Assembly: GCA_018058165.1 (NCBI GenBank)
Contig: JAGPCI010000002.1
Span: 1 to 37,349, forward strand
Direction of reading: 5' to 3'
Length of the DNA stretch: 37,349 nt
Origin: Bacteroidia bacterium
Lineage (GTDB): Bacteria > Bacteroidota > Bacteroidia > UKL13-3
Shown: positions 1-19,132 of the stretch, piece by piece
Position numbering within the stretch: the first letter of the stretch is position 1
How the letters are laid out: every line of letters begins with the position of its first letter
Program-made: the position numbers and the translations under genes
Notes under the pieces: model-generated
Told to the model about the DNA's origin: nothing
The model's database searches: none
What the model saw: the letters and a program-made list of their open reading frames with translations, nothing else

Positions 1-865
1 TAGTTCCTTCCATAAAAATACCCGTAGTATTTGCTAAAAATCGGTTGTTAAAAATGTAACTATCCGATATTTCTTTTAGTAATAATCCATACGCAGCATC
101 GCCCCAATTATCCTCAAACCAATTGTTAATCATTTTAACCCCATTAGTAAACATTACGGCTACACCAGCTCCGTTGTTTTTAAATACATTACTTATGTAG
201 GTATCATTATGAGAAAACATAAAATGTAAGCCATACCTAATATTGTTACTTGAAATATTACGCCAAATAATTGACCCGGTAACAAACTCTAAATAAATGC
301 CATCACGGTGGCCATTAATTTTATTCCCTATAATTTGTATGCTGTCACTTTTCCAGCAATGTATGCCATTACCTATTTCTTGTTCTTCTTTTCCGTAGGC
401 ATTAATGGTATTGTTTTTTATAATACAATGTTTGCCGTATTGTATGTAAATGCTAAAAAAATTGTCGTCTAATATATTGTTTGATATGGTTACAAACCAT
501 GCATCGTAAACTTTAACTCCACAGGGATCTTCTAGTGTTCCGTATCCAGAGTTTTTAATCGTAAATCCATCTAAAACAACAAAGTTTGCTTTGATAGATA
601 TTACCTCTTGTTTTTTTTGGCCATCAATTACTGGGTTGTTTTTACCAAGTATGGTTAGGCTTTTATCAATAAGGATATTGCCTTCTTGATAAATTCCACC
701 ATCAACTATAATTGTATCGTTATCTAATGATAATTTAAGTGCTTCTTTAATTGTTTTTAAGGCAAATTTTGGACCAACGGTTATAGTTTTTGCCGAGGCT
801 GATGTGCAAGTTATTGTTGCTAATAAAAGTAATATGATGAAGTTTGTTCTATTAATTATTGCCAT
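1..865 (-). CDS. nosD: Nitrous-oxide reductase maturation protein NosD (periplasmic beta-helix protein). N-terminal part only; the gene runs off the left edge
   Basis: Absent from the ORF track because it has no stop in the window. Manual reverse-complement translation from the ATG at 865-863 stays open to position 1. It gives MAIINRTNFIILLLLATITCTSASAKTITVGPKF..VDGGIYQEGNILIDKSLTILGKNNPVIDG..NGIHCWKSD..HRDGIYLEFV..IRYGLHFMFSHND..NNGAGVAVMFTNG. These are a signal peptide followed by repeated parallel beta-helix motifs typical of NosD. It overlaps the upstream nosL stop by 10 nt. Confidence 0.85.
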   Translation of the reverse strand, partial: MAIINRTNFIILLLLATITCTSASAKTITVGPKFALKTIKEALKLSLDNDTIIVDGGIYQEGNILIDKSLTILGKNNPVIDGQKKQEVISIKANFVVLDGFTIKNSGYGTLEDPCGVKVYDAWFVTISNNILDDNFFSIYIQYGKHCIIKNNTINAYGKEEQEIGNGIHCWKSDSIQIIGNKINGHRDGIYLEFVTGSIIWRNISSNNIRYGLHFMFSHNDTYISNVFKNNGAGVAVMFTNGVKMINNWFEDNWGDAAYGLLLKEISDSYIFNNRFLANTTGIFMEGT

Positions 866-1857
866 GTTATTGCTTTAGCCTCGTATTGTTGCAGGTAAGG
901 CTCAGCATCTGCAATTGTTGCAAATGCGGCTATTCCGCCACCCATAGGGCTTTTAATATTTTCGCTATTTATAAGTGTGGCTTTATTTATTAATAAAAAT
1001 GATGATGGATTTAAAAAATCGGCCACATAAAAATTAGTTGTTACTGCTTGTGGTTGTGCTGTTTTATAATTGGTCATGCATTTTACATCATCAAATTTAT
1101 AAACTCGTCCTTTAGCTGTTACTAATTGGCTGGCAAACTTAGCATCAGTTATGGTCATCTTACAAAAATCACATTGGTCAACATTAATTTTAATTACAGC
1201 AGGTCCTACCTCTGCACACGAAGTTAAAAACATAATCGAAAGGCCAACAATAGTTAGTGCTTTATTTTTTTTAAATTTGCCCAATATGTTGTGCTCTACT
1301 GCAAAACAAAAAAGCATTACCACACCTGCGCCAATAAACATCCAACCGCCAAAGGCAGGTATAGAATAAGCGCCAAAATTTAATAATTGTTTAAATCCAA
1401 TTAATGGTGGTTGATATGCCATACCGGGAACAATTATAGCTGCATTTGGGTCTAAGTTATGGCCATAATTATAATTCCAACGGTAAAAATCTATCATTGA
1501 TATTATACCAAAAAGTATAAAACTAACGAGTAAAAAAGTAAGTATTTTTTTATTATTGAGTAGGGCAGTAGCAAGGCTAAAAAGTGCAAAAAAGGCTATT
1601 AGGTATCTTAATATAGAAAACTCTATAAAATTTTCTGAGTGCAAGGTTTGCATGCCAATGTAATGGTTTAATCCATTAATAATATCAACATCTCCACCAA
1701 GACCATTTGCGTGAATAGTTAGAGCTAATCCTTCTGGATATTGCGGTGCATCTAATTCAATGCGCCATATAGCAACAAACATTGAAGTAACTAACATAGC
1801 AGCGGCTATAACTAACAGCAATCTTGATGACGGTTTAAGTTTGTTATCTGAGTTCAT
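856..1857 (-). CDS. nosL: NosL-family copper chaperone domain fused in frame to an N-terminal four-helix membrane domain (NosB-like?)
   Basis: The C-terminal ~135 aa carry a lipobox (LSIMFLTSC) and NosL-like motifs (VDQCDFCKMTI, KGRVYKFDDVKC, SPMGGGIAAF). The N-terminal ~190 aa have four hydrophobic helices. It lies between nosZ and nosD. Confidence 0.75.
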   Translation of the reverse strand: MNSDNKLKPSSRLLLVIAAAMLVTSMFVAIWRIELDAPQYPEGLALTIHANGLGGDVDIINGLNHYIGMQTLHSENFIEFSILRYLIAFFALFSLATALLNNKKILTFLLVSFILFGIISMIDFYRWNYNYGHNLDPNAAIIVPGMAYQPPLIGFKQLLNFGAYSIPAFGGWMFIGAGVVMLFCFAVEHNILGKFKKNKALTIVGLSIMFLTSCAEVGPAVIKINVDQCDFCKMTITDAKFASQLVTAKGRVYKFDDVKCMTNYKTAQPQAVTTNFYVADFLNPSSFLLINKATLINSENIKSPMGGGIAAFATIADAEPYLQQYEAKAITWQ

Positions 1858-1872
1858 TTTTTTGGCATTAAA

Positions 1873-1911
1873 AAAGGAGGTGCTGATGCATTATTCATCC
1901 GCACCTCCTTT
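1873..1911 (-). terminator. Strong hairpin between nosZ and nosL, followed by a T-run on the transcribed strand (attenuator or 3'-stabiliser)
   Basis: AAAGGAGGTGC (1873-1883) pairs perfectly with GCACCTCCTTT (1901-1911), and an inner GATG/CATC pair extends the stem. On the minus strand the stem runs into TTTTTTAATG. Confidence 0.5.
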
Positions 1912-1926
1912 CGGTTTATTTAAGTA

Positions 1927-3918
1927 TTATTTTTTTGCTTCTGGGGCAGTAGGTGTTGTAGGGTTGCCAAGTAACCAACTAAGTGGTGTGTTACTGTTTG
2001 CTGGCGATACGCGAACATATCCTGACATTTCTTGATGTAATGCACTACAAAAATCTGTACAATACATTGGGAACACGCCTGCTTTTTCTGGAACCCATTT
2101 TAAAGTAGCAGTTTCTCCTGGCATAACTAATAATTCACCATTTCTTGCTCCTTTTACCGCAAAACCATGCGGTACATCCCAATCTTGCTCTAGGTTAGTT
2201 ACGTGGAAGTAAACTTCATCACCAACTTTTACACCTTCAATATTATCTGGGGCTAAGTGAGAGCGAATTGCTGTCATATACACATGAACTTTTTTGCCTT
2301 CGCGAACTACTTTAGTTTCATGTTCGCCTTTTGCAACATAAGGGTGATTGTTTTCAGCAATCTTAAATATTTTAACAGAGTTTGGTGCAATTAATTCTGC
2401 TGGTGCAGCTTGTGCGTAATGCGGCTCACCAATAGTAGGGAAATCTAATATTAACTGCATTTTATCACCGCTGATATCATATAACTGTGCGCTTTGAGAT
2501 AACTCTGGTCCAGTTGGTAAATATCTATCTTTGGTAATTTTGTTGTATGCTATTAAGTATTGTCCAAATGGTTTTTTACTATCGCCACCCGGAACGCATA
2601 AGTGACCTACAGAATAAAATGTTGGTACACGGTCTAATACTTTTAGGTCTTTAATATTCCATTTAACAACTTCTGATGAAACGAAGAATGAAGTGTAAGC
2701 GTTACCTTTACCATCAAACTCAGTATGCAATGGGCCTAAGCCTGGTTTTTTAACTTCACCATATAAAGCAGCTTCGTATTTTATTACATCAATACCATCA
2801 TATTTACCATCAAATTGTTTGTCGGCAATGGCTTTTTGAATTTTATCGAAGCTAAATACAGGAATTAAAGCAGCTAATTTACCACTACCTACAATGTACC
2901 CACCAGTTGGGTCTACGTCACAACCGTGTGGAGATTTAGGGCATGGAATCATGTAACATAAGTCAGAAAACTCTTTTGCATCAAGTATAAGTACTTCGGT
3001 TCTCAATTCTGATTTTGCAGAATGTGTTTTTTCGTCCCATACATTATGAATGTATTTAGCAGCAGTTTTTTTACCTCTACCTGCTTTAATATATTCTTCA
3101 GCTTTTTTCCAATTTACAGCCATAATAAAATCTTTGTCGTTTTTAGAAGCGTTAACCTCTAACAAAGTATTTGCTTGCTCTGTATTGTAGCATGAAAAGA
3201 AGAACCAACCATGTGATTTGCCTTTACCAGCGTGGCTTAAATCAAAGTTTACGCCAGGGCATTGAATTTGAAATGCAATATCCATTTCACCTTCTTTACC
3301 TACACTAATAAAGCTTAAATGGCCTTTAAAGTTTTGTTTGTAAGTGTTAATTGGCACATCACCATTCGAGTTGTCGGCTGGTACGCTAAAACGTGTTCCT
3401 GCAACTACATACTCAGTATTTTCTGTAATAAATGGTGACGAGTGGTTACCTGCACTATTTGGTATTTCAATAATCTCGGCTGTACGGAAAGTTTTTAAAT
3501 CAATACGTGCAACACGTGGTGTGTTATTGGCATTACCAAATACCCAACGGCCATCAATTTCGCCATTAGTTTGCGACATTTCTGTGTGATGCAAATCATC
3601 CCAAGGCACCATACCATGTGATGTGTTTAACATTGGTTTAGTTTCTTCGCTGTATCCCCAGCCTTTTTCTGGATCAACTGCAAATACTGGGATAACACGT
3701 AGTAAACGACCACTCGGCAATCCGTAAACGCTTAATTGGCCGCTAAATCCACCACTTACAAAGTTGTAGAATTTGTCGAGTTTACCAGGTGCGATGTATG
3801 TTTTTTGTGCAGCATCACCTGTAACCGCGTTGCTTGTATTTTTTGGTTTACAAGAAACGATAGCAGCAACGGCCATACTAGCAATTGCGCCTTTAATTAA
3901 TATACTATTCCTTTTCAT
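1927..3918 (-). CDS. nosZ: Sec-dependent (clade II) nitrous-oxide reductase NosZ
   Basis: 663 aa. The CuA motif is C-terminal (CTDFCSALHQEM). CuZ-type histidine motifs are present (DDLHHTE, KSPHGCDV, GPLHTEF, GEPHYA). There is no twin-arginine motif; the N-terminus is a Sec/lipoprotein-type signal (AAIVSC). Confidence 0.95.
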   Translation of the reverse strand: MKRNSILIKGAIASMAVAAIVSCKPKNTSNAVTGDAAQKTYIAPGKLDKFYNFVSGGFSGQLSVYGLPSGRLLRVIPVFAVDPEKGWGYSEETKPMLNTSHGMVPWDDLHHTEMSQTNGEIDGRWVFGNANNTPRVARIDLKTFRTAEIIEIPNSAGNHSSPFITENTEYVVAGTRFSVPADNSNGDVPINTYKQNFKGHLSFISVGKEGEMDIAFQIQCPGVNFDLSHAGKGKSHGWFFFSCYNTEQANTLLEVNASKNDKDFIMAVNWKKAEEYIKAGRGKKTAAKYIHNVWDEKTHSAKSELRTEVLILDAKEFSDLCYMIPCPKSPHGCDVDPTGGYIVGSGKLAALIPVFSFDKIQKAIADKQFDGKYDGIDVIKYEAALYGEVKKPGLGPLHTEFDGKGNAYTSFFVSSEVVKWNIKDLKVLDRVPTFYSVGHLCVPGGDSKKPFGQYLIAYNKITKDRYLPTGPELSQSAQLYDISGDKMQLILDFPTIGEPHYAQAAPAELIAPNSVKIFKIAENNHPYVAKGEHETKVVREGKKVHVYMTAIRSHLAPDNIEGVKVGDEVYFHVTNLEQDWDVPHGFAVKGARNGELLVMPGETATLKWVPEKAGVFPMYCTDFCSALHQEMSGYVRVSPANSNTPLSWLLGNPTTPTAPEAKK

Positions 3919-3932
3919 ATTAGGATGGTTTG

Positions 3933-4436
3933 TTATTTTACTCCGTCATTTTTACGCATAAATTCTAAAATTTTGCGCGCATCATCATCTGTTAATCCTT
4001 GGTTTGGCATTCTCACTAAACAAATTTCTAATTGAGCTTGAACTTCTGGGTCTTTGTCAATCATTGGATCTGGATTAGTTATAAAATTCATAATCCACTC
4101 TGGTGCTCTTCTTGAGGTAACACCGTGCCATCCTGGTCCTACTAATCTTTCGTCAGTCATTTTGTGACATGATGAGCATTTTACGCCCGCAATGCTTTCA
4201 CCTTCAGTTGCCATTGCAGCATCTACAGTTGGGCTAATGGTTAAATTGTCTGCTGAGAATTTTCCTTCACCACGATTTGGATCGTAATCTGGATTGCCTG
4301 TTGTTGTTTCAGTGCTTTCGGTTGTAGTTGTTGTTGCTTCTGATGAAGTAGCAGTGGTTTCGTTTGAGCTTCCTCCGCATGCATAAAGCGCTACAGAGAT
4401 GGCCATAATTGCAATTACTTTTTTCATAAAAATCAT
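3933..4436 (-). CDS. Lipoprotein monohaem c-type cytochrome, probable electron donor to NosZ
   Basis: Lipobox VALYAC, a Thr/Ser/Glu-rich tether, a single CSSCH and a distal Met (VRMPNQG). The stop is 14 nt upstream of the nosZ start. The start may instead be the MKK at 4427. Confidence 0.8.
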   Translation of the reverse strand: MIFMKKVIAIMAISVALYACGGSSNETTATSSEATTTTTESTETTTGNPDYDPNRGEGKFSADNLTISPTVDAAMATEGESIAGVKCSSCHKMTDERLVGPGWHGVTSRRAPEWIMNFITNPDPMIDKDPEVQAQLEICLVRMPNQGLTDDDARKILEFMRKNDGVK

Positions 4437-4587
4437 GTAAATTTTGTTCTACGAAAGTGGTCATGTTTGCATTTTTATTTTATGCGTTCAGTCATAAAAC
4501 TAAGATGATTAAAAGCAGCAACTTATAGTAATTGGTAAGTAAGATTTTGGTTGAATTGGTGCATGTTATTTTATCGCTAATTAAATA

Positions 4588-5649
4588 TTAGTTAGATAAA
4601 CTTTCATTATCTGTAAGTGTTTTTAAAAAGGCTACTAATGCCTGCTTTTGTTCAGTAGTTAGGTTTAATTTATAGGTTGGCGCTTTTTTATTAATTATTG
4701 GGTCGATTGTGGCTGATGGCTTAATTCCTGAGTTATAAAATTCTACCACTTCCTCTAAACTACTGTATCTTCCATCATGCATGTATGGTGCTGTTAGGCT
4801 TGCATTGCGTAAAGTTGGTGTAGCAAATCTACCAATATCATTTGCATTATTTGTTACCAACCATCGGCCATTATCAAACCCACTAAAAGTACTGTTTAAG
4901 CCATTATTATGAAACTCTGTATCGCTAAATAAAGGTGGTTGATGGCAATGAAAACAATCTCCTATTTCGCTAAAAAAAATGTTATAGCCCTCTTGTTCTA
5001 GAGTAGTAAACATTGTTTCACCATTCATAACTTTATCATATTTTGAATTGCTACTAATTATAGTACGCATGTATTGCGAAATGGCATAGGATATTTTTGT
5101 TTGCATAGTTTTAAAATCGTAATCGTAAATGTTTTTAATTAAAAATGCCTTGTAAAATGCATCTTTATAGTAACTGCTATTTGCTAAGTTTTGATACATA
5201 TCTGCCGAGTCTGTATTAAAAAATTCTGGACCAAAATCTGCTATGCATAAAGTATCTAAAATGGTTACTGAACCCGTCCAATTGTAATGTCGTTTAAATG
5301 CTAAATTAATATGTGGCGGCACACTTATTCTATATCCATTCTCGCCAATATGCATGGGTACCGAAAATGATTTATCTCGATGGTGGCATGATGAGCAACT
5401 TCTACCGTTGCTTGATAACATTGGTTCGTTATATAACCGCTCGCCAAGCGCTACCCCTTCTTCTGTTAACGGGTTATCTGAATTTACTTTGTATAATGGA
5501 AATCCTTTAGGCACTTTTAGTATGTAAGGAGTAGGTTTATAATCTACAATTGGTGTGGCGGGCTCGTTTTCTTTACAAGCACTTATGCTTAATACAATAA
5601 TTAAAAATGCTATTAATATTTTACTCAACATAAAACACATCCTTTCCAT
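4588..5649 (-). CDS. Di-haem cytochrome c peroxidase family protein (CCP/MauG/MbnH-like), lipoprotein
   Basis: Two CXXCH motifs (CSSCH, CFHCH) about 145 aa apart and a CCP-type motif TPTLRNASLTAPYMHDG. The lipobox is LSISAC. The likely true start is MLSKIL at 5631. Confidence 0.8.
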   Translation of the reverse strand: MERMCFMLSKILIAFLIIVLSISACKENEPATPIVDYKPTPYILKVPKGFPLYKVNSDNPLTEEGVALGERLYNEPMLSSNGRSCSSCHHRDKSFSVPMHIGENGYRISVPPHINLAFKRHYNWTGSVTILDTLCIADFGPEFFNTDSADMYQNLANSSYYKDAFYKAFLIKNIYDYDFKTMQTKISYAISQYMRTIISSNSKYDKVMNGETMFTTLEQEGYNIFFSEIGDCFHCHQPPLFSDTEFHNNGLNSTFSGFDNGRWLVTNNANDIGRFATPTLRNASLTAPYMHDGRYSSLEEVVEFYNSGIKPSATIDPIINKKAPTYKLNLTTEQKQALVAFLKTLTDNESLSN

Positions 5650-6364
5650 TATTGGTAATTTTCATCATGGTAGTTGAATCGCCCATGGTATAATTTCCAT
5701 CAGTAAATAAGTTATAGGTATATGGGTTTTTGTACCATTCATTAATATTCATGGTAAGGCCAATTGTAGAAGTTTGATTTTCGTTAACTGTTGTACTAGT
5801 GGTGATAGGATTGTGGTTGATTAAGTAAGCATTTAAACCTGTATGCACTGCATAACCTTTTCTATCATTTGATGGTGTTAAAAACTGTCCTTCTAGCTTT
5901 AAAAAATGGTAACCGCCACCCATCGCTTCAGGCCATATCATTCCAATATTTTCATCTGTATTGGGTATCATGCCATGTTGGTTATTTGCTGCATCAATAC
6001 CAATATTAAACGATAGGCTTTCGTAAGTGCCTAATGGAACATTATCTAGTTTAATTTGTATAGGTTGTGTTCTAGCGTCTATATAAACTATTTGGTTTGA
6101 TATATATTTTACTACACCATTAGTGGTGAGCTTAAAATTAGATAAATAATAATTTACCCTTGTAACACTAAAGTTATTGTTGGCTAAGTTGGTATATTTT
6201 AAGGTATCAAAAAGTAATAATTGCCCGTCAACTTTATGGGTTAGGTTTAGGTTAATGGTGCCTGTGGGCGTAATAACAATTGGTTTAATATCTTCTGTAT
6301 CCTTACATGCTCCTAATAAAAATGAAAGCAGTATGATTAAAATGGAGGTTTGTTTGTTTAGCAT
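5621..6364 (-). CDS. MbnP-like periplasmic lipoprotein (putative copper-binding partner of the di-haem peroxidase)
   Basis: 247 aa with lipobox FLLGAC and all-beta-type composition. It overlaps the di-haem peroxidase gene immediately downstream, which is the arrangement typical of MbnP-MbnH pairs. The family call is from recall, not from a search. Confidence 0.5.
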   Translation of the reverse strand: MLNKQTSILIILLSFLLGACKDTEDIKPIVITPTGTINLNLTHKVDGQLLLFDTLKYTNLANNNFSVTRVNYYLSNFKLTTNGVVKYISNQIVYIDARTQPIQIKLDNVPLGTYESLSFNIGIDAANNQHGMIPNTDENIGMIWPEAMGGGYHFLKLEGQFLTPSNDRKGYAVHTGLNAYLINHNPITTSTTVNENQTSTIGLTMNINEWYKNPYTYNLFTDGNYTMGDSTTMMKITNNGKDVFYVE

Positions 6365-6398: not shown

Positions 6399-6412
6399 TT
6401 GATGGCTGTCAA
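6399..6412. promoter_or_regulatory. FNR/CRP-type box TTGAT-GGCT-GTCAA
   Basis: 9 of 10 matches to TTGAT-N4-ATCAA. It lies in the divergent region between mbnP (-) and a 55-aa ORF (+). It sits 26 nt from the TTTG/GTTG of a -7-like element on each side. Confidence 0.55.
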
Positions 6413-6471: not shown

Positions 6472-6639
6472 ATGAAGTTGTTTTTGAATATTTTATTGCA
6501 AGGCGGACCACCAGACCCTATAGATTGGGGAGATCCAGAGGATATTCCAATATCTGATCAAGCTTATGTTTTATTTGTACTTGCAATAATATATGGATCG
6601 TATAAAATTTATCAATCAATAAAAAAAGCACCTAAGTAG
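6472..6639 (+). CDS. Hypothetical 55-aa small membrane protein
   Basis: Below the ORF-track cut-off. Manual translation gives MKLFLNILLQGGPPDPIDWGDPEDIPISDQAYVLFVLAIIYGSYKIYQSIKKAPK: an acidic/Pro-rich segment, one TM helix and a basic tail. It ends inside a strong terminator and has promoter-like elements upstream. Confidence 0.35.
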   Translation: MKLFLNILLQGGPPDPIDWGDPEDIPISDQAYVLFVLAIIYGSYKIYQSIKKAPK

Positions 6640-6649
6640 GTGCTTTTTT
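6621..6649. terminator. Bidirectional rho-independent terminator
   Basis: AAAAAAAGCACCT-aagt-AGGTGCTTTTTT: a 7-bp GC-containing stem with an A-run and a T-run on either side. It lies between the convergent 55-aa ORF (+) and the lipoprotein gene ending at 6675 (-). Confidence 0.75.
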
Positions 6650-6674: not shown

Positions 6675-7163
6675 TTATTCGAAGTATTGGTTAAACATTA
6701 CAAACGATGCTTGCAATGCGTTTACAATTTGTGACGCTTCTTCTTCGTTTTTAGCATTTCCTAAATCTTTTATTAATTGCATATATGGATGTAACCATAC
6801 GTGTAATTCTTCATGCGATTGACCTTTCATGGTGCAGCTTTTGGTTAGTAAGCCTACAGTTGAGTTTAACTCTTTAGCCAGTGCAGCATAATCTTTTTTA
6901 GGTGCATTTATGTAAGTGTCTACTAGGCCTTCGCTATTACGTACATACACCATCATCTCTTTATTCACTGCCCATTTTGCACCATTGTTTAAGTTAATCT
7001 CTAGCTTTTCTGTTGCTTCATGGCTCTCCTCATGTTCTGCTGTATTACTTACTTGTTCTTGATTAGAAGCAACATCGTTTGTTGGTGTTTTTGGCTGTTG
7101 GTTGCAACTAGTAGTAATTGCTAACCCGCCCGCCAAGGCAAAAAATAATTGTAGTTTCATCAT
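6675..7163 (-). CDS. Hypothetical lipoprotein with His/Glu-rich motifs
   Basis: Lipobox AITTSC, a low-complexity linker with EHEESHE, and a C-terminal helical part with QSHEELHVWLHPYM. I recognise no family. Confidence 0.6.
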   Translation of the reverse strand: MMKLQLFFALAGGLAITTSCNQQPKTPTNDVASNQEQVSNTAEHEESHEATEKLEINLNNGAKWAVNKEMMVYVRNSEGLVDTYINAPKKDYAALAKELNSTVGLLTKSCTMKGQSHEELHVWLHPYMQLIKDLGNAKNEEEASQIVNALQASFVMFNQYFE

Positions 7164-7199: not shown

Positions 7200-7613
7200 T
7201 TAATCTGCCTCCCAAGTTACAAAGCAAGTGCTTGTTTCGTATAATTTAAGTTTTTTTAAATAAATATTTTGTGGCATTACGGGTTGTAGTTTAGCTGCCA
7301 TATCTAAAATCATTATTTCGGCAGTGGGCTCATCGGCTAACCATAATTTTTTGGTGTTAATTTGATGGGTGCTTTCCAGGTTTAAACTATTGGTTTTAAG
7401 CATAAGCGAATGGTCGTAATCATTAATAACTGCATCATTCACTATGCCTTTTAATACCTTAAAATCAATAATCATGTTATTAGTTAAGGTTGATTTTGTG
7501 CTTACAGCAACGTGTAATTCGTAACCATGGCCATGTATATTTTTGCATGCACCATCGTAATCTGAAATGGCATGGGCCGCTTCAAACCTAAATATTTTTG
7601 TGATACTAAGCAT
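7200..7613 (-). CDS. queD: 6-carboxy-5,6,7,8-tetrahydropterin synthase / 6-pyruvoyl-tetrahydropterin synthase family
   Basis: 137 aa with the motifs FRFEAAHA and CKNIHGHGYELHV (the Cys plus HxH zinc/active-site signature). Confidence 0.8.
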   Translation of the reverse strand: MLSITKIFRFEAAHAISDYDGACKNIHGHGYELHVAVSTKSTLTNNMIIDFKVLKGIVNDAVINDYDHSLMLKTNSLNLESTHQINTKKLWLADEPTAEIMILDMAAKLQPVMPQNIYLKKLKLYETSTCFVTWEAD

Positions 7614-8793
7614 TTGTTTCCCTTCTGCGTTTAACTTCTTTAGTTATTAATTCCAGCTCACGATTCATTTGGCCATTTACAGTTTTGTTTTCGTTTGCCC
7701 TGCGAATTAAATATGGAATTGCTTTTTCTATTTCGCCATATGGTAAATATTTCGACACTTCAAAACCAGCATGTGCAAGGTTAAAAGTTAGGTTATCACT
7801 CATGCCTAATAATTGCGAGAAACTAATTTTTTCTTTAGCATCTGCAATGTTTAATCTATTTACTTCTGCTATTGCATGTGTTATACTTTCTTCGTTGTGC
7901 GAAGCAATACAAAGATGGGTAGTTTGCATATTTGCTAAACAAATATCAATGGCCATATCAAAAGATTTATCTGTATCGGCTTTGGTTTTAAACACAGGAG
8001 AAGGCACACCAGCTTCTTCAGCCCTTTCGTTTTCTTTCTCGTGGTAAGCCCCTCTAACTATTTTTACACCAGCATAAAAATTGTTCTTCTTACTTAAGGC
8101 AATTAAATTATTCAGATACACTATTCTATCTGTTAAATACATTTGTAATGTGTTAAAAATAACTGCCTTTTTTGTATTGTATTTTTGCATCATTTGTTCC
8201 ACTATGTAATCGTAAATATCTTGTGTGCAACGCTCTTCTGCATCAAAATAAATGGTTATATTATGTGCGTGGGCTTCTGCGCATATTTCATCAATGGTAG
8301 TTAATAGTTGGTTAAAGCGTACCTTGTTGTCACTGCTTTTTTCATTTAACAAAAAATTGCTTCGTTTTAAAAAATCGTAGTCTTCTAATCCAGTAATTTT
8401 TATGCTAATATAGTGGCCAGGATATTTTATAGCTAATGCATTAATATTTTGCTTAATGCGTATTGCATTTTGTTTGTATCCAGCTTGGTTATTTTCACTC
8501 TCAGATACATAATCTAATACTGATTTTACCTTGTATTGCATTAAATTACCAATGGTTATAAATGCTTGATGTAAGTTTTCGCCTGCACAAAACACTTTAA
8601 ATACGGTTTGTTTAATTAAAAACTTTCCGGGTAGTTTATATTTTAAAATAAGCGCTGCACCGCCAGATAAAAACTTCACCAAAAATGGATAGTTAAATAA
8701 CTTAAATACAAAATGTGTTTTTTGTAATTGAGTAGTGGTTTTATACTTAAAAGCAAGTTCTGTTTGGTTAAAGTTAGGTATATGCGTACTCAT
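7606..8793 (-). CDS. Proline dehydrogenase family protein (monofunctional PutA-like)
   Basis: 395 aa with the motifs KIVRGAYHEKE, LGMSD and AIPYLIRRANENKTV, typical of the PRODH beta8-alpha8 barrel. Confidence 0.75.
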   Translation of the reverse strand: MSTHIPNFNQTELAFKYKTTTQLQKTHFVFKLFNYPFLVKFLSGGAALILKYKLPGKFLIKQTVFKVFCAGENLHQAFITIGNLMQYKVKSVLDYVSESENNQAGYKQNAIRIKQNINALAIKYPGHYISIKITGLEDYDFLKRSNFLLNEKSSDNKVRFNQLLTTIDEICAEAHAHNITIYFDAEERCTQDIYDYIVEQMMQKYNTKKAVIFNTLQMYLTDRIVYLNNLIALSKKNNFYAGVKIVRGAYHEKENERAEEAGVPSPVFKTKADTDKSFDMAIDICLANMQTTHLCIASHNEESITHAIAEVNRLNIADAKEKISFSQLLGMSDNLTFNLAHAGFEVSKYLPYGEIEKAIPYLIRRANENKTVNGQMNRELELITKEVKRRRETNA

Positions 8794-10163
8794 AATATGT
8801 TTGATTTGGTGTGTGATAGGTTAACTGTTGAGTTTGATTTTTTTAGATAACAAGCTGCGTAGTTATAAAGCAATGTTGCAGCTATAATTAGCAGAGCAAC
8901 TACTAATACAAAACCTGCAATAATAAATGTGGCGAAATAGGGTGTTAAATCCTGCATCATATCGTGGTAGTTACTTTGTATTACCGAGTTTTGCCAAATA
9001 CCTTTTTTTATGCCTGCAATATTTAGCGCAAGCCAAAATACCAATAAACTTATTTGGGTTGTATAAAACAACATATTTAGCCATTTATTTGCTTTATTGT
9101 AATTGGTGCAATTGTTACCTAAAAACATAAAACAAGCTGCTAATAAAATCATGCTATTAATTCCAATTGTTGTACCCATTGCATGGGCAACTGTTACATG
9201 CGTGCCATGTGTGTAAATATTTAATACCGGAATTGACATAAGTACAGCTAAACCCATATTGGCAAACACCCAAATATCCGAAGCCATTATAAATCGATAG
9301 GGGAAAAAGTGGTAGTTTTTTTTCATATCTGATACACTTTGTTTCCATTGAAAAATTATGCGTGCAAAAAATATCCATTCGGTCATGCTTACTATATATC
9401 CAATATATCTTATGTAACTATCTGTAGGAAGAGTATAGACATGATGACCCCAATTAAACATTAAATTAAACAGGCCTAAAAAGTACATACCAAAGGCAAT
9501 TTTACTAAATCCAACTTTGTTGTTGCCAGTAATTTTATCCATTAAAAAAAATGCTGTGCCATATATTAATTGATTCCACGAACCCACCAAGGAGCCATTT
9601 ACTTTCCACTGTATGGTCATGTCTAATACAAAATTATCACGGAAATAAGGGAATACCCACAGGTAGTTTTCAATAAATGTAAACATAAAAAACAACCCGC
9701 CAGTAAGCCACATCCAAACATAAACGGGCCATGTTTTTATTGATTTAACTGTTTTAATAAAGTTTATTAAATAAAGTATCCAAGCGGCTGCAATTGGTAA
9801 TGCCCAAATAGGATTAAATTCCCAGTATTCTCTTCCCCCAAAATCGTGGTGAAAATAACTATTTGCAATGCCTACTATTGCGATTAGCCATAAAGTAAGT
9901 TGTGCGGCTGCAAGTTTGTTTGATAATTTATTAGGGTTGAGTAAGTGCAATGCACTCATAACCGAACCATTTGCTGCAATAATTATCCATAATGTAACAA
10001 ACGAAACATGCAAGGGGCGTAATGCAGTAAAGCCAATTGAATTTTTTAAAAAATCGGGTTTTACGTAAACTATCGAAGCCAATAAGCCAAACACAATTCC
10101 AACTAACAACAAGCAAAGGGCCAATGCCAAAAATAATTTTCCTATGTTTGGTTTCGTGCTCAT
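8790..10163 (-). CDS. Haem-copper oxidase superfamily catalytic subunit, divergent cbb3/NOR-like
   Basis: 457 aa with about 12 TM helices. It has the CcoN/NorB-like motifs LRPLH (helix II) and FNWGHHVY (helix VII HH). The helix VI His and the helix X HxH are not present (see findings). Confidence 0.8.
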   Translation of the reverse strand: MSTKPNIGKLFLALALCLLLVGIVFGLLASIVYVKPDFLKNSIGFTALRPLHVSFVTLWIIIAANGSVMSALHLLNPNKLSNKLAAAQLTLWLIAIVGIANSYFHHDFGGREYWEFNPIWALPIAAAWILYLINFIKTVKSIKTWPVYVWMWLTGGLFFMFTFIENYLWVFPYFRDNFVLDMTIQWKVNGSLVGSWNQLIYGTAFFLMDKITGNNKVGFSKIAFGMYFLGLFNLMFNWGHHVYTLPTDSYIRYIGYIVSMTEWIFFARIIFQWKQSVSDMKKNYHFFPYRFIMASDIWVFANMGLAVLMSIPVLNIYTHGTHVTVAHAMGTTIGINSMILLAACFMFLGNNCTNYNKANKWLNMLFYTTQISLLVFWLALNIAGIKKGIWQNSVIQSNYHDMMQDLTPYFATFIIAGFVLVVALLIIAATLLYNYAACYLKKSNSTVNLSHTKSNIL

Positions 10164-10567
10164 GGTTGTTCTATCATTCCGTTATTAAACTTTTTAAACT
10201 TTCTGTAATCTGCTGTTCCGCTTTGGTTAGTTTGAATTAAAAATTCCAAAAGTGCAGTTTGTTCTTCCTCCGATAAATTAAAAGCAGGCATTGCTTTTAC
10301 GCCACTATTAATTATTCCGCTAATTACCTTATCGCCTTTAAGGCTATATATATTGGTTAAATCAGGGCCTAAATATCCACCTAAACCATAAAGTTGGTGG
10401 CAACTTTGGCAATTGTATTTTTGCCACACCAATCGTCCTTTTACGGCAAGTTCTGTATTAAAAGTTTGTGGTAGTTTTAAAGTGGGCTTATTAGTATAAA
10501 TACTAAATGAGTAAACCAAAAAGCTTAAACATAAGGCCAAAAATATATGTAGCGGTTTTATCTCCAT
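10160..10567 (-). CDS. Membrane-anchored monohaem cytochrome c (NorC/CcoO-like partner subunit)
   Basis: N-terminal TM anchor, CQSCH followed by LYGLGGYLGPDLT, and a distal Met in KAMPAF. Its stop overlaps the oxidase-like start by 4 nt. Confidence 0.8.
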   Translation of the reverse strand: MEIKPLHIFLALCLSFLVYSFSIYTNKPTLKLPQTFNTELAVKGRLVWQKYNCQSCHQLYGLGGYLGPDLTNIYSLKGDKVISGIINSGVKAMPAFNLSEEEQTALLEFLIQTNQSGTADYRKFKKFNNGMIEQP

Positions 10568-12099
10568 GCTGGCACGTTGTATTTATAACTTTTGGCGTTT
10601 GTGGTATCCTCGTTCATGTTATTTAACAAGTCTTCTATTATTACTCCTGCTACACAAGCCATGTTGTTTAGCTGCATTAGTTTAATAGAAAAATTATTAT
10701 TGTTTAGTATTGATGTAGTGAGCTGTTGTAATATTTGCATGTATTTTAAAGCGGCATGTAAGGTAATTACATCACATGTTGAGAAGCTTAAACTCATCCA
10801 TTTTTTAATTACCTGCATTTTTGGGTTTATCCAATTATAGTCTATGTTTTTTGGATGGGTAGCTGTGATAGATTTTGATTGAATAAAAGTATCAGAATTT
10901 AACAGCTCGGTTATATTTATTGCGGCTTGATTTGCAAATACTAATGCTTCGAGCAATGAGTTTGAAGCAAGCCTGTTTTTGCCATGAAGGCCAGTGCATG
11001 ACACCTCGCCAAGGGCATACAAATTGGTTAAACTTGTTTGTGCAAATTGATTAACTTCTATGCCACCGCATTGGTAATGTGCCGATGGTACAATTGGAAT
11101 TAAATCAGTTCTTAAATTATACCCTAGCGAAGTAAGTTTTTGGGTTATTGAAGGAAAATGTTGACTAAATTCTTGATGATTTAAATGCCTTAAATCTAAA
11201 TAGGCACAGGCGGTATTGGTTAATGCTAGTTGGGTATTAATTGCATTACTAACCACATCGCGTGTAGCTAATTCGCCTCGTAAATCATATTTAAATAAAA
11301 AACGACAACCAGCCTTATCAGTAATATATGCGCCAAAACCTCTAACCGCTTCAGATATTAAGAATGATGTTTGTTGTTTATTTTTAACATACAATGCAGT
11401 GGGATGAAATTGTACAAATCGCATGTGTTTTAAATTGGCACCAGCACGTTTTGCCATTGCATAACCATCGCCTGTAGCAGGCTCTGGGTTAGTGGTGTTC
11501 TCAAATAATTGTCCGCAACCACCAGTTGCCAGTACAGTAATTTTAGCATATAAAGTTTCGCAGTTTTGTGTTACCTCATCATAAACCGAGACGCCCATTA
11601 CTGCATTGTTAATGGTAATTAATTTTGCAACAAATAGGTGTGTTATTAGGTTAATATTTTTTTGTGCCTCTACTAGTTTTATTAATGTATTTGCTACTTC
11701 AAATCCTGTTTTGTCTTTATGGTGTATTACCCTTGGTTTGTTATGCCCACCTTCTAATGCAAGTGCTATATTACCTTGGTTATCTTTATCAAACACAACA
11801 CCCATATTTATTAATTCGTGAATGCTTTTAGTTGCATTTTTTATAACTAAATCTACTATGTTTTCATCACATAATCCTTTTCCACTAGCAAGGGTATCTG
11901 CAATGTGTTCTTCGTAAGAGTCTGTTAGGGTGTTTAGCACTGCTGCAATTCCACCTTGTGCATAGCTAGTATTACTTTCTAATGCGCTAGTTTTGGTAAT
12001 TACATTAATTTTGGCTTGAGGGTTTTGTTTAGCTAATTTTAAAGCTAACGATAATCCAGCAATGCCAGAACCAACAATAAGTACATCTGAGTTTCTCAT
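10558..12099 (-). CDS. nadB: L-aspartate oxidase
   Basis: FAD motif DVLIVGSGIAGLSLA, plus SYAQGGIAA, HYQCGGI and NRLASNSLLE. The ORF track extends to 12147, but the ATG at 12099 (MRNSDVLIVGSG) avoids overlap with nadA. Confidence 0.9.
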   Translation of the reverse strand: MRNSDVLIVGSGIAGLSLALKLAKQNPQAKINVITKTSALESNTSYAQGGIAAVLNTLTDSYEEHIADTLASGKGLCDENIVDLVIKNATKSIHELINMGVVFDKDNQGNIALALEGGHNKPRVIHHKDKTGFEVANTLIKLVEAQKNINLITHLFVAKLITINNAVMGVSVYDEVTQNCETLYAKITVLATGGCGQLFENTTNPEPATGDGYAMAKRAGANLKHMRFVQFHPTALYVKNKQQTSFLISEAVRGFGAYITDKAGCRFLFKYDLRGELATRDVVSNAINTQLALTNTACAYLDLRHLNHQEFSQHFPSITQKLTSLGYNLRTDLIPIVPSAHYQCGGIEVNQFAQTSLTNLYALGEVSCTGLHGKNRLASNSLLEALVFANQAAINITELLNSDTFIQSKSITATHPKNIDYNWINPKMQVIKKWMSLSFSTCDVITLHAALKYMQILQQLTTSILNNNNFSIKLMQLNNMACVAGVIIEDLLNNMNEDTTNAKSYKYNVPAWR

Positions 12100-12104
12100 C
12101 CAAA

Positions 12105-13049
12105 TTATGATAATGCTAACATTCTGTTTAAAGGAATTAAAGCACATTCAATTACATCATTTGATAAGGTAATTTCTGGTGTTTCATTTAGTAAACAATT
12201 GTATAGCTTTTCTAAGGTGTTTAATTTCATAAATGCACATTCGCTGCATGCACAAGTGTTGTCTTCTTTTGATGGAGCTGGAATCAAAATTTTGTTTGGT
12301 GCTTCCTGACTCATTTGATGTAAAATGCCTGCTTCTGTTGCAATAATAAATTCGCTTGCATCACTTTGTTTTACATAGTTTATCATTGCCGCAGTAGAGC
12401 CTACAAAGTGCGCTAAGGTTAATAAATCTGCTTCCGATTCGGGGTGAACAACCAATTTAGCCTTTGGATGTTTTTTGTATAAATCAACTAATTTGTTAAA
12501 CGAAAATGCCTCGTGAACAATGCAGGCCCCATCCCATAATACCATGTCTCTGCCAGTTTCTTTTATCAGGTATTTCCCTAAATTTCTATCTGGGGCAAAA
12601 ATAATTTTTTCGTAACTAGGTATCGATTCTATTATTTTTTTTGCATTTGATGAGGTACAAATAATATCACTTTGTGTTTTTATTTCGGCCGAACAATTAA
12701 TATAACTTACTACAATATGGTTTGGATATTGTTGTTTAAAATCGCTAAACTCTTGCGGTGTACAAGAACTTGCTAATGAGCAACCGGCTTCTAAATCGGG
12801 TAATAAAACCTTTTTATTTGGATTTAAAATTTTGGCTGTTTCGGCCATAAAATGTACACCAGCAAATACAATAATATCCGCTTTAGTTTGTGCAGCCTGT
12901 TTTGATAAACCTAAACTATCACCTACAAAGTCTGCTATATCTTGTATGGCTTCCTCTTGGTAATAATGGGCCAAAATAACCGCATTTTTTTGTTGCTTTA
13001 AACGTTTAATAGCGGTTGCATAATTAAATTTTTGCGATGCTAAAGTCAT
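12105..13049 (-). CDS. nadA: Quinolinate synthase
   Basis: 314 aa with the motifs [30 protein letters not shown] and PDRNLG, and conserved cluster cysteines. Confidence 0.9.
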
Positions 13050-13052
13050 AAA

Positions 13053-14864
13053 TTATGTTGCTTTTACAGTAATAGGAGTTAATTGCATGTTGTGTAAATC
13101 TTCTTCAAGTTGATTTAGTTCAATACGCATACCTTTAAATAATTCTTCAGCCTGATTGCCCATGTTGTCTATTAAGCCACGGTAATAATCTATTCCTGAA
13201 AGTAAATTTTCTTTAAACTTTTCTAAGTAAGTTTCTTTACGCTGTACTATATTTAACGTTATCTTTTTTTGTTCGTTTGTTAAATAGTTCATGTAAAGTT
13301 TTAATTCGTTTATAAACAAATTAGGGCGATGCACTTTATTTAAAATGTTAATTCTGCCATAAATATGATCTACCATTTGCTGTAAAGTAAATGTGCCCGA
13401 AAAGAAAGCTAAGTTTGGCCCAGGGCAAATTGTAACTGCACCAAAACTATGCTTAGGTGTTATACCGTTTACCATTAATGCCGGTTCTGTTAAACCTTCA
13501 CATAAGCAATCTTTTTCTTTAACAATAGTTGCCTTTGCTTCATATTCTTCGGGGCTGGCACAAGTTTCTTTTAATTGTTTTAATTTAAAATATTGGTATT
13601 TTACAGATGCGGTGCAAATGGGTTCTTTGGTAAACTCCGTATCAAATTGTAAGTACTTTTTTAGGCATGGGCTACCAGATTTTCCTTTTTCTATCCTGCT
13701 TTTACGTAAGGTTTCTGCACTACTTTTTCTAAAATTATTAAAGGGTACTCCAAGCGGAGAAGCGTTACTTAAATAATAATCTTCGGGCACAGCGCTAGCT
13801 AAATCATTTAGTGTTTTGGTATCTACATTAGTAACTTCTGGTACCAATAAAAACGGGCTACCCCAGCCACCGCTATTTAAGCGATAGTATTTTAATAAGA
13901 AATTATTTTCGTGTACATTACCTATGCCACCTTGTGCAGTAATTTTTAAATTGGGGTTTGTGGCTAACTTGTTCTTGCCCGAAGCGGTAAGTGCATCATT
14001 ACACATATCGTATAAAGTTTGATATAACTCTGCACGTTTGTTTTTAAACTCTTCTAAAATTGGTCCCATTAATATGCCATCTGTTGCAAATGCATGTCCA
14101 CCACAATTTAATCCAGACTCAACCCTAAACTCCGAAACCCACAATCCTTTTTTTGCCAAAAATTTTCCTTGAATTAAAGCCGACCTGTAATCGCTTACTT
14201 TTAATACAATTTTCTTTTTTGATAGCCCATTTACTTCAGGATAAAAATCCTTAAAGTGTTCGCAATAGCCATAAATTTTTGGATTGAACCCTGCTGAGAA
14301 CACAACCGAAGAACTCAAATTGCTTTGCGCAAAACCGCGTAATGCTGATGATGCATCAGATTGTTCGTGTGGTAAAGGATTTCCTGCCTTGTCAAAAATG
14401 GGCTTGTCTACTTTGGTCATAATATTAACTTCAATAGCCCCAATACTCCAACTTTCTTTTAAGTGTTTTTCTGCTTTATCTCGTTCGTCAGCCGTTATAT
14501 TTGGTAAAGTATCATACAGCTGCTTTAGGTCATTATCGTTAGGCAGCATACTAAAATATTGCTTCACAATTGGGCTCGAAAATGGTTGTTGGCGCAAATC
14601 TTCAACTTGTTTGTTGATAATTTCATCCATTGTATTTAAGTAGGTTGAAATTCGCAAAGCGCGATAATCATCATCTGAAGTTGTTATTTCTGAATAAGGC
14701 AAACTATACAAAGTGCAATAATGCTTGCGCATTTGTTCTAGCAATTCATCTTCAACAATAGAAATGGCTGAACTTATTCCAAATTTTGCTACCTTAATGG
14801 GTGTATCTACAGTAAAGCCAATACCCATAACTGGTATATGAAATTTGTGAGCTTGTGCTGTCAT
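13053..14864 (-). CDS. Conserved hypothetical protein, possibly an FMN-type TIM-barrel oxidoreductase fold, with a Cys-rich and coiled-coil C-terminus
   Basis: A 603-aa uninterrupted ORF. The motifs VESGLNCGGHAF and ITAQGGIG resemble nitronate-monooxygenase/IMPDH-like barrels. There are 3-nt gaps to rfbD upstream and nadA downstream. Confidence 0.6.
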   Translation of the reverse strand: MTAQAHKFHIPVMGIGFTVDTPIKVAKFGISSAISIVEDELLEQMRKHYCTLYSLPYSEITTSDDDYRALRISTYLNTMDEIINKQVEDLRQQPFSSPIVKQYFSMLPNDNDLKQLYDTLPNITADERDKAEKHLKESWSIGAIEVNIMTKVDKPIFDKAGNPLPHEQSDASSALRGFAQSNLSSSVVFSAGFNPKIYGYCEHFKDFYPEVNGLSKKKIVLKVSDYRSALIQGKFLAKKGLWVSEFRVESGLNCGGHAFATDGILMGPILEEFKNKRAELYQTLYDMCNDALTASGKNKLATNPNLKITAQGGIGNVHENNFLLKYYRLNSGGWGSPFLLVPEVTNVDTKTLNDLASAVPEDYYLSNASPLGVPFNNFRKSSAETLRKSRIEKGKSGSPCLKKYLQFDTEFTKEPICTASVKYQYFKLKQLKETCASPEEYEAKATIVKEKDCLCEGLTEPALMVNGITPKHSFGAVTICPGPNLAFFSGTFTLQQMVDHIYGRINILNKVHRPNLFINELKLYMNYLTNEQKKITLNIVQRKETYLEKFKENLLSGIDYYRGLIDNMGNQAEELFKGMRIELNQLEEDLHNMQLTPITVKAT

Positions 14865-18424: not shown

Positions 18425-19132
18425 TTAATCCTCGAGTTTCGCAATTGTAAATAATCGCTCGTAATCAACAATTTTTATGTATTTTTTGAAGAGTAAAATT
18501 ACTTTTTCATCGTCCCATTCGCGTAAAACCCTAACTGCAGTTTCTGTAGCCATTCCTGCAATACTGGCCATATCTTCTCGGGTTAATACAATGTTTATAA
18601 AGTTTTCGTTGTTTTTGCCAAACGATTTTTCAAGTAATAATAATGTTTCTGCTAATCGTGCTCGTGTGTCTTTTTGAATAAAGCTAACCGATTTATTCTC
18701 GGCCAAGCTTAAATCTTCGGCAAACCTCGACATAATTTCCATAGTAAACTTTATGTTCGATTTTATTAAATCAAATATGCGCTCTTTAGGAATAAAACAT
18801 ACAATCGAGTCTTCAATTGCAACACCAGAGGCAATGTAGTGTCCATCACCCAAAAGCCCCCTGTAGCCAATTAATTCACCATCTTTAGCTAGTCGTAAAA
18901 TTTGGGTACTTCCATCGTGCAATGTTTTGTAAAGTTTAATTTTGCCTTGGTGCACACAATGTAAACCCTTTGCTAAATCACCTTCATGAAAAATTAATTG
19001 ATTCTTTTTAACCCGGTGCGTTAGCTTATAGTCGTTTAAATCACTTAACTCATCTTTTTTTAAAGTGCAAAATGATGACAGGGCCATGTTTTGGCAGGTA
19101 GTGCAATCTATATTTTTTACAGGTTTTTTCAA
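18425..19132 (-). CDS. Crp/Fnr family transcriptional regulator with an N-terminal cysteine motif
   Basis: cNMP-binding-type beta-roll (IFHEGDLAKGLHCVHQGKIKLYK) and a C-terminal HTH with an FNR-like recognition helix (ATETAVRVLRE). N-terminal CTTCQNMALSSFC. The start codon is TTG at 19132-19130. Confidence 0.85.
   Translation of the reverse strand: MKKPVKNIDCTTCQNMALSSFCTLKKDELSDLNDYKLTHRVKKNQLIFHEGDLAKGLHCVHQGKIKLYKTLHDGSTQILRLAKDGELIGYRGLLGDGHYIASGVAIEDSIVCFIPKERIFDLIKSNIKFTMEIMSRFAEDLSLAENKSVSFIQKDTRARLAETLLLLEKSFGKNNENFINIVLTREDMASIAGMATETAVRVLREWDDEKVILLFKKYIKIVDYERLFTIAKLED

Follow-up and report, generated by a model that had tools for sequence, protein, structure and literature searches.

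A conserved cNOR-type haem-copper protein of Bacteroidota with an apparently remodelled catalytic site and a predicted His/Met haem b

Several families related to the cytochrome c-dependent nitric oxide reductases (cNOR) have been set apart within the haem-copper oxidase (HCO) superfamily by their ancestry, partners or active-site residues. nNOR keeps the same active-site residues as cNOR but derives from the B-family and has a CuA-type subunit; it occurs in Thermoproteota, Chloroflexota, Proteobacteria and SAR324, with zero members in Bacteroidota (PMC11214002). gNOR has an Asp for an active-site His (PMC11214002), and the nitric oxide (NO) dismutase NOD, which derives from qNOR, shows His to Asn and Glu to Gln changes in a protein of ~800 aa that has neither haem c nor a quinol site (PMC3413370). 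A further HCO family 'closely related to cNOR', which 'might serve as' a nitrous oxide (N2O) reductase, has been named but left undescribed (PMC11214002, Murali et al. 2024). This 'N2O red' clade lies in the C-family branch, is without the active-site Tyr and is found in 293 GTDB r202 genomes. The role was tentatively assigned to account for a membrane N2O reductase of Flexibacter canadensis that neither sulfide nor acetylene inhibits, although N2O reductase activity has been measured for none of its members (PMC11214002). Here we describe a gene pair from a Bacteroidia bacterium (GenBank assembly GCA_018058165.1, contig JAGPCI010000002.1, positions 1 to 37,349; this 37,349-nucleotide stretch is called the window below) that encodes an HCO catalytic subunit and a small cytochrome c:

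8790-10163, minus strand: catalytic subunit of 457 aa, NorB/CcoN-like with 12 helices, belonging to the K187/G190 subclade defined below (Pfam COX1, E=2.3e-30)
10160-10567, minus strand: NorC-like membrane-anchored monohaem cytochrome c of 135 aa (phmmer match to NorC 3o0r_C)

Fold and ligand positions of the catalytic subunit

The 457-aa open reading frame (ORF) encodes a haem-copper superfamily protein of the cNOR/cbb3 branch, with 12 helices. In profile alignment its best solved sequence relatives are the NorB proteins 4xyd_A (1.4e-19) and 3o0r_B (3.9e-15), followed by CcoN (~1e-10) and qNOR (4.5e-4). An AlphaFold2 (AF2) model built with 39 relatives as input showed 12 long helices with a predicted local distance difference test score (pLDDT) of 80.7 and a predicted template-modelling score of 0.85. 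Searched with Foldseek, this model matched CcoN and NorB at a template-modelling (TM) score of ~0.8, and A- and B-family oxidases far worse, by fold alone, at E ~1e-5.

To place the ligands, the protein was aligned to solved NorB (4xyd_A, 3o0r_B) and CcoN (9g6b, 8smr, 6xkw, 3mk7) structures in four alignments, both single-sequence and profile, and all four gave a single register. The positions that matter for the metal centres are as follows:

10008-10010, minus strand: codon of His52, axial ligand of the low-spin haem b in helix II, aligned with the LRPLH/RMLH His of CcoN and NorB; the codon was checked
9819-9830, minus strand: Glu112 to Glu115, counterparts of Pseudomonas aeruginosa NorB Glu135/Glu138 ('GREYWE' against 'GREFLE')
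9594-9605, minus strand: Lys187-Val-Asn189-Gly190, the remodelled helix-VI metal-ligand segment, from alignment and conservation
9441-9446, minus strand: His240-His241, the helix-VII non-haem-metal ligand pair, aligned with GHH of NorB and CcoN and invariant in all sets
9378-9380, minus strand: Glu262 in helix VIII, counterpart of NorB Glu280 ('SMTEW' against 'SALEP/V')
9177-9185, minus strand: His327-Ala-Met329 in helix X, aligned with HgH of NorB and HvH of CcoN

In helix VI, 'QWKVNGSLVG' aligns to 'QWWYGHNAVG' of cbb3 and 'WWyVVHLWVEG' of NorB, which places Gly190 at the position of the CuB/FeB His, exactly 50 residues before His240 with the spacing found in cbb3. Lys187 stands in place of a Trp conserved in both cNOR and cbb3 and lies one helical turn from the missing His, on the same face. 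In helix X, His327 aligns with the proximal His of the high-spin haem b3, and Met329 occupies the position of the second haem b His. Indeed no H-x-H is found anywhere in the protein, whose His residues are at 52, 73, 105, 106, 240, 241, 285, 319, 322, 327, 400 and 451. None of these offers itself as an alternative third ligand: cNOR and cbb3 conserve H319 as well, H322 varies clade-wide and H105 and H106 are unconserved.

The initial annotation had read this protein by eye as a haem-copper subunit of the NOR/cbb3 branch in which two canonical His are replaced, and most of that description stands. The COX1 match and the NorB and CcoN relatives bear out the branch; H52, H240/H241, the 50-residue spacing and the lack of H-x-H all reappear in the alignments and the residue listing, and the profile and structure alignments held the register, with no His at the helix-VI or second haem b position. 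A misalignment by eye was ruled out by the agreement of the four alignments and the exact -50 spacing. Both losses are therefore confirmed, but the helix-VI counterpart is Gly190 and not Asn189 as had been proposed. The possible His/Met low-spin haem, also proposed, is implied by H52 and M329 throughout the clade.

The acidic residues of cNOR are kept in part. NorB Glu135/Glu138 serve the Ca2+ site and periplasmic proton entry, and among close relatives of the window protein E112 is invariant and E115 conserved. NorB Glu211 has no counterpart (Val193 plus a one-residue deletion), the Glu215 position is Asn197, and the position of the cbb3 cross-link Tyr251 is Met235. Three further residues, E165, D181 and Q185, are invariant and specific to the family.

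Conservation, clade structure and the cytochrome c partner

Conservation was followed in a close set of 39 relatives (59-72% identity) and in a locus set, the best 80 of at least 592 GTDB species-representative genomes that encode a relative. Every one of the best 80 loci comes from a metagenome-assembled genome (MAG), labelled Bacteroidota or plainly mislabelled. H52, G190, H240, H241, H327 and M329 are invariant in 39/39 close relatives. The 80 loci and the window together gave 84 HCO ORFs in which the ligand pattern is near-invariant, the sole deviants being three canonical NorB genes and one CcoNO gene in the same loci. Searching 1.84 billion cluster representatives with a profile returned 163 proteins at E<=1e-30 (50%-identity clusters). 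Position 190 is non-His in 80/80 full-length representatives at 50% identity and Met stands at 329 in ~95% of them, with clade members extending down to roughly 25-30% identity. This clade-wide conservation ruled out a sequencing error or a pseudogene.

In a rough neighbour-joining (NJ) tree the clade is monophyletic and stands beside cNOR+qNOR, apart from CcoN, and it fits none of the characterised families with normal ligands; these were the two further checks that the initial annotation had called for. The tree shows two subclades, one with Lys187/Gly190/Glu262 (~64 representatives, including the window protein) and one with His187/Asp190/Ala262 (~16). K187 and G190 are invariant within the first, where Glu262 is conserved, while the second has Ala at 262. 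Since positions 187, 190 and 262 covary, they appear to form one functional site, for which the H/D subclade may have found a different solution at the non-haem metal. This smaller subclade comprises representatives P0220-P0270 (for example L084:8001-9377), and at least one of its members comes from an Opitutales (Verrucomicrobiota) MAG. Judged by sequence, the clade is a large uncharacterised sister of cNOR, and the window gene is a genuine, conserved and mis-annotated cNOR-type variant whose catalytic site looks remodelled and whose haem b would have His/Met ligands.

A relic without catalytic activity, or a module serving purely in electron transfer or sensing, would agree with the loss of canonical catalytic residues and with the low AF2 confidence at the site. 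Yet K187, G190, H240, H241, E262 and H327 are strictly conserved, the site covaries between subclades and at least 592 species have kept the pair, so that we consider this explanation very unlikely.

Position 189 behaves differently. Asn189 is at least 90% conserved in the 39 closest relatives and present in 73/84 locus-set sequences, but clade-wide the residue is Y (commonest), N, A, L, T, C, V or others. The initial annotation had suggested a His-His-Asn centre with Asn189 as ligand, in an NO reductase of the nNOR type or one diverged further. Conservation of Asn189 among the nearest relatives speaks for it, as does the His/Met low-spin haem that nNOR also has. The clade-wide alignment contradicts it, however: 189 is variable, it is the invariant Gly190 that aligns to the His, and the invariant new residue is Lys187. 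nNOR itself has canonical ligands, a B-family origin, a CuA-type subunit and no members in this phylum, the partner here is NorC-like, and the His to Asn change belongs to NOD. We give this centre, and the attribution to nNOR, almost no credence.

The partner is a 135-aa protein with an N-terminal transmembrane segment as membrane anchor and the haem c motif C53-Q-S-C56-H57. It matched NorC in phmmer (3o0r_C 2.5e-11, 4xyd_B 8.6e-9) and is nearer NorC than CcoO. C53, C56, H57 and Met93 are conserved in 80/80 loci and Tyr65, the counterpart of the NorC Ca2+-ligand Tyr73, in 79/80. In 80/80 loci the gene immediately before the HCO gene is that for the cytochrome c, and the same two-gene unit is found in the H/D subclade. 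In the window the sequence reads ATGA where the cytochrome c stop and the HCO start coincide, in agreement with the translationally coupled, NorC-like partner described by the initial annotation. Some distant clade members carry C-terminal FixO-like and cytochrome c domain fusions instead; a proline dehydrogenase fusion in members of 800 aa was ruled out, as these extensions are FixO/cytochrome c domains.

Because either a NorC-like partner or fused c-haems are kept, electron input through c-haem would be a conserved property of the clade, which favours a reductase over a dismutase. An NO dismutase-like reaction (2 NO -> N2 + O2) could be imagined by analogy with NOD, where one metal His and nearby Glu residues were lost in parallel (PMC3413370). 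But NOD works without electron input and the present clade, which has it, lies outside qNOR, leaving such a reaction scarcely credible.

Gene neighbourhood, regulation and proposed function

Neighbours were counted over the 80 loci, and immediate neighbours over the 63 (upstream) or 65 (downstream) loci in which they could be evaluated. Genes typical of nitrosative or anoxic stress surround the core pair: Rrf2 regulators in 37 loci, RIC/ScdA in 18, nrdDG in 12, norQD in 4, canonical norCB in 3 and qNOR in 3. Genes for DUF2249/DUF1858 proteins were counted in 5 loci and for a class II ribonucleotide reductase in 4. In locus L047 the order is Rrf2-norC-norB-RIC-norQ-norD-lyase-[cytochrome c-HCO], and in L087 a RIC gene divergently adjoins the pair. 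As an aside, a cluster of 5 loci (L081:274-1566, minus strand) has a membrane protein of ~430 aa with a weak COX1 match beside DUF1858/DUF2249 and RIC genes, which may be a further diverged haem-copper-type or NnrS-like protein of the same stress island.

A 22-bp palindrome, TATCGGATAA-N2-TTATCCGATA, was found de novo upstream of Rrf2 and RIC genes. Allowing four or fewer mismatches it has 25 sites in 1.27 Mb, 23 of them intergenic. It lies 20-110 nt upstream of Rrf2 genes and of HCO-containing operons, precedes Rrf2 genes in 21 loci and stands ahead of the first gene in 19 of the 58 HCO operons whose start is in view; the first operon gene behind it encodes a 603-aa protein in 16 loci, a lyase in 9 and the cytochrome c in 2. 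We propose this palindrome as a candidate operator, apparently undescribed so far. Loci that have it include L012, L018, L019, L026 (406-427), L031, L040 (11837-11858), L046, L048, L062 and L063. The Rrf2 proteins carry an Fe-S-sensing triad, C-x6-C-x5-C, in 39/40 cases, and in L081-83 nrdDG follows the Rrf2 gene. Together these observations tie the enzyme to a regulon that senses redox state or NO.

The function that we tentatively prefer, and would not be greatly surprised to see fail, is the cytochrome-c-dependent reduction of a small reactive oxidant, which the enzyme would thereby clear when conditions are anoxic or nitrosative. The likeliest substrate would be NO, since it fits the regulon and the neighbours best. 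A role in handling NO or N-oxides, as the initial annotation had supposed, is thus plausible, but on other grounds: its argument from a nearby nosZ gene fell away, as nosZ is within 8 kb of the pair in 5/80 loci only, and its place is taken by Rrf2, RIC, nrdDG and the cNOR/qNOR neighbours.

What the analysis shows is the fold, the partner subunit, the ligand pattern with its conservation throughout the clade, and the gene neighbourhood. We infer the electron path from the conserved ligands, and likewise infer which cofactors are bound, the substrate and the direction of proton uptake. Electrons would pass from a periplasmic c-type donor to haem c (His57/Met93), then to the low-spin haem b (His52/Met329) and on to the high-spin haem b3 with its proximal His327. 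His/Met ligation should raise the potential of haem b, by analogy with nNOR, where the same ligand change is estimated to add ~+150 mV (PMC11214002). The bridging Ca2+ site of the two haems is apparently kept, as judged from the alignment of Glu112 and the NorC-like Tyr65. The pocket of b3 would be lined by His240, His241, Lys187 and Glu262, beside the cavity made by Gly190. With the counterparts of His207, Glu211 and Glu215 gone, the classical FeB site of three His and a Glu cannot form. The space might be filled by a metal with different ligands, for which Glu165, Asp181 and Glu262 are invariant candidates, or by the ammonium group of Lys187. Lys187 is in our view a better candidate for filling the gap than Asn189, because it is invariant, replaces a conserved Trp and lies one turn from the missing His. 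Protons would arrive from the periplasmic side, as in cNOR; conserved polar residues do cluster on that side, as in the non-electrogenic cNOR.

Several points weigh against NO reduction. The residues lost (His207, Glu211 and Glu215) are important in cNOR catalysis, which argues against ordinary NO reduction, and the canonical cNOR or qNOR that adjoins the pair in six loci suggests that its role is not redundant with theirs. The commonest direct neighbours are amino-acid catabolic genes, not specific to NO (tryptophanase/tyrosine phenol-lyase, proline dehydrogenase, nadAB and ADP-forming acetyl-CoA synthetase), and the synteny counts come from related genomes, so that shared ancestry may partly explain them. 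The Rrf2 effector could be O2 or Fe-S status instead of NO. The scan with a position weight matrix, which found 60 palindrome sites against 2 in shuffled sequence, used a matrix trained on the same loci that it later scanned. The window itself has neither an Rrf2 gene nor the palindromic operator, and has an FNR-like regulator instead. AF2 confidence is low precisely at residues 180-186 and 238-248. Homologue searches and cluster look-ups returned MAG names and no cultured carrier, and in the literature we found no biochemistry of any clade member.

A bolder reading would be a new HCO catalytic type, fed by c-haems, in which the non-haem metal site is replaced (by the Lys ammonium group beside two His in the K/G subclade, or by a new His/Asp/His/His site in the H/D subclade) and whose chemistry is unlike that of any known HCO. 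We hold this to be unlikely; if true, it could mean for example that hundreds of species of Bacteroidota and Verrucomicrobiota respire N2O without copper. A site with two His and a Lys for the three-His site, together with a His/Met haem b, offers a test of which features of the binuclear centre small-molecule reduction needs, and the covarying K/G/E and H/D/A subclades amount to a natural experiment.

In the window the pair belongs to a tightly packed unit on the minus strand:

10558-14864, minus strand: genes 5' of the pair, encoding a soluble 603-aa protein, nadA and nadB (Pfam NadA, FAD_binding_2)
7606-8793, minus strand: proline dehydrogenase, coupled 3' of the HCO gene by an ATGA overlap (Pfam Pro_dh, 1.2e-68)
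6622-6649, minus strand: terminator-like hairpin after a PTPS gene and a 162-aa ORF (12-bp stem, then a T-run)

As read from the sequence, the 3' end of nadB is overlapped by the cytochrome c start by 10 nt, and a second ATGA joins the HCO stop to the proline dehydrogenase start. The hairpin is probably the end of the transcription unit. The 162-aa ORF (6675-7163, minus strand) is the final gene ahead of this strong hairpin; its product, probably a lipoprotein, has an N-terminal region rich in His and Glu (HEESHE) and no family match. Among the relatives, immediate downstream neighbours are proline dehydrogenase in 27/65 loci and a QueD-like PTPS in 10/65, while nadA and nadB each occur in ~30-35/80 loci. 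The gene immediately upstream encodes tryptophanase/tyrosine phenol-lyase in 28/63 loci and ADP-forming acetyl-CoA synthetase in 15/63. The lyases occur as one or two tandem paralogues directly 5' of the pair (L031:4787-7573, L081:6808-9580 and about 50 loci), an unexplained tie between the HCO enzyme and genes of amino-acid fermentation.

This gene order is what an O2-scavenging or high-affinity terminal oxidase, or a peroxidase, might call for, draining electrons from proline dehydrogenase and L-aspartate oxidase and so protecting Fe-S and radical enzymes. The pair overlaps with both nadB and the proline dehydrogenase gene, which recurs directly 3' in relatives; O2-sensitive enzymes and repair proteins lie nearby (NadA, NrdDG, radical-SAM proteins, RIC), and the nearest oxidase relatives are the micro-oxic cbb3 enzymes. 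The active site does not agree: the cross-linked Tyr (now Met235) and its His partner (now Gly190) are gone, no CuB site of three His is left, and the Tyr is treated as required for O2 reduction in the superfamily (PMC11214002). The small subunit, too, is nearer NorC than CcoO. An oxidase or peroxidase is therefore improbable in our judgement, and reduction of NO stays the preferred function.

The 603-aa protein (13053-14864, minus strand) is soluble and conserved, with seven invariant Cys. It had no match in Pfam, NCBIfam, PDB sequences or PHROGs, but more than 8000 homologues occur in Bacteroidota, cultured Runella among them. Its AF2 model (pLDDT 73.8) weakly resembles flavin mononucleotide TIM-barrel enzymes of the FabK/FabX/nitronate-monooxygenase type (Foldseek E 4e-5, TM 0.3-0.4). 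The gene is present in 33-35/80 loci, where it often heads the Rrf2-controlled operon with the HCO pair, and minimal operons of the 603-aa gene, cytochrome c and HCO are seen in L019, L021, L040 and L067.

Beyond the hairpin lies a clade II-type nos cluster (856-6364, minus strand) that encodes a NosL fusion protein, a 663-aa NosZ (nosZ, 1927-3918) and a cytochrome c of 167 aa. An MbnP/MbnH (dihaem peroxidase) pair comes before this cluster, with an FNR-like box, TTGATGGCTGTCAA, at 6399-6412, 35 nt upstream of mbnP; MbnP/MbnH are also found near the HCO pair in 14/80 loci. A Crp/Fnr-family regulator (18425-19132, minus strand) with an N-terminal C-x2-C-x8-C resembles the FNR-type O2 sensor; its gene shares the strand of the HCO operon and lies upstream of the long series of genes which that operon closes. 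The count of FNR boxes in the window was not above chance, and a sigma-70 promoter scan was uninformative, as shuffled sequence gave more sites.

Comparison with known families

Compared with cNOR (3O0R of P. aeruginosa, 4XYD of R. denitrificans), the pair shares a NorC-type anchored monohaem cytochrome c encoded directly upstream, the helix-II haem b His, the proximal His of b3, the HH pair and counterparts of Glu135/138 and Glu280. The Ca-ligand Tyr of NorC is kept and neither enzyme has an active-site Tyr. In contrast, identity to canonical NorB genes in the same loci is ~23%, and the FeB set of three His (H207, H258, H259) and Glu211 finds Gly190 and no Glu211. The bis-His haem b (H60/H349) becomes His/Met with Met329 at H349, one of the two catalytic Glu215/Glu280 is kept (Glu262) and Asn197 stands at Glu215. 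Lys187 replaces the conserved Trp, E165, D181 and Q185 are invariant, and linkage to norQD is seen only where a canonical nor operon adjoins.

The cbb3 subunit CcoN is alike in fold (TM ~0.8), in the 'QW' motif, in the 50-residue spacing and in the FixO/CcoO-like fusions of distant members, but the present protein lacks the helix-VI His, the cross-link Tyr (Met235) and a bis-His haem b. As it scores 29.8 bits against a cutoff of 583 in the NCBIfam ccoN model TIGR00780 and fails these ligands, PGAP misnames it as 'cbb3-type cytochrome c oxidase subunit I'. This name and the JGI name 'nitric oxide reductase subunit B' both fail the defining ligand tests. Such genes are present in at least 592 genomes at the species level and in thousands of clusters from metagenomes, and because mislabelling is so widespread, norB and ccoN surveys in Bacteroidota may mis-estimate the capacity for N2O production or aerobic respiration.

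With nNOR the protein has in common the His/Met low-spin haem (H52/M329), apparently by convergence and without common ancestry; its NorB/CcoN ancestry, NorC-like partner and non-canonical site rule out membership. gNOR is related to the B-family and has a cupredoxin subunit, whereas the window protein has Gly190, a cytochrome c partner and a place in the C-branch, and is thereby excluded from it; the H187/D190 subclade resembles the gNOR solution, with Asp190 found only in that sister subclade. As in NOD an active-site His is replaced, but with 457 aa, an intact haem c subunit, a tree position outside qNOR, Gly at the His position and a variable Asn189, membership in NOD is ruled out.

There remains the 'N2O red' clade. 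PMC11214002 states that the active-site His is conserved in all families except gNOR, which misfits the clade described here. The text of that article gives no 'N2O red' sequences or active-site residues and the bioRxiv tables omit the family, literature searches turned up nothing that connects the two clades, and no homologue from Solitalea (Flexibacter) canadensis surfaced, as searches with the window protein and with a Sphingobacteriaceae member gave only MAG names. Nevertheless the two agree in their position as sister of cNOR (by profile scores and NJ tree), in the absent Tyr (Met235), in host phylum and in abundance, and the 'N2O red' family that Murali et al. 2024 named is probably our clade. 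Whether it reduces N2O is a separate matter. A copper-independent membrane-bound N2O reductase would suit the cNOR-related, Tyr-less clade of PMC11214002, the Bacteroidota-dominated subclade of the window, to whose phylum Flexibacter belongs, the compatible size and a non-canonical site that is found beside canonical NORs, where another substrate fits. Set against this, in addition to the points just given, a clade II nosZ already lies 5 kb away in the window and nosZ is rare near the pair in relatives. N2O is moreover a poor ligand and we know of no haem enzyme that respires it. We regard this activity as unlikely for the window protein, but if N2O were the substrate, the clade would provide a second, copper-independent route for the removal of a greenhouse gas.

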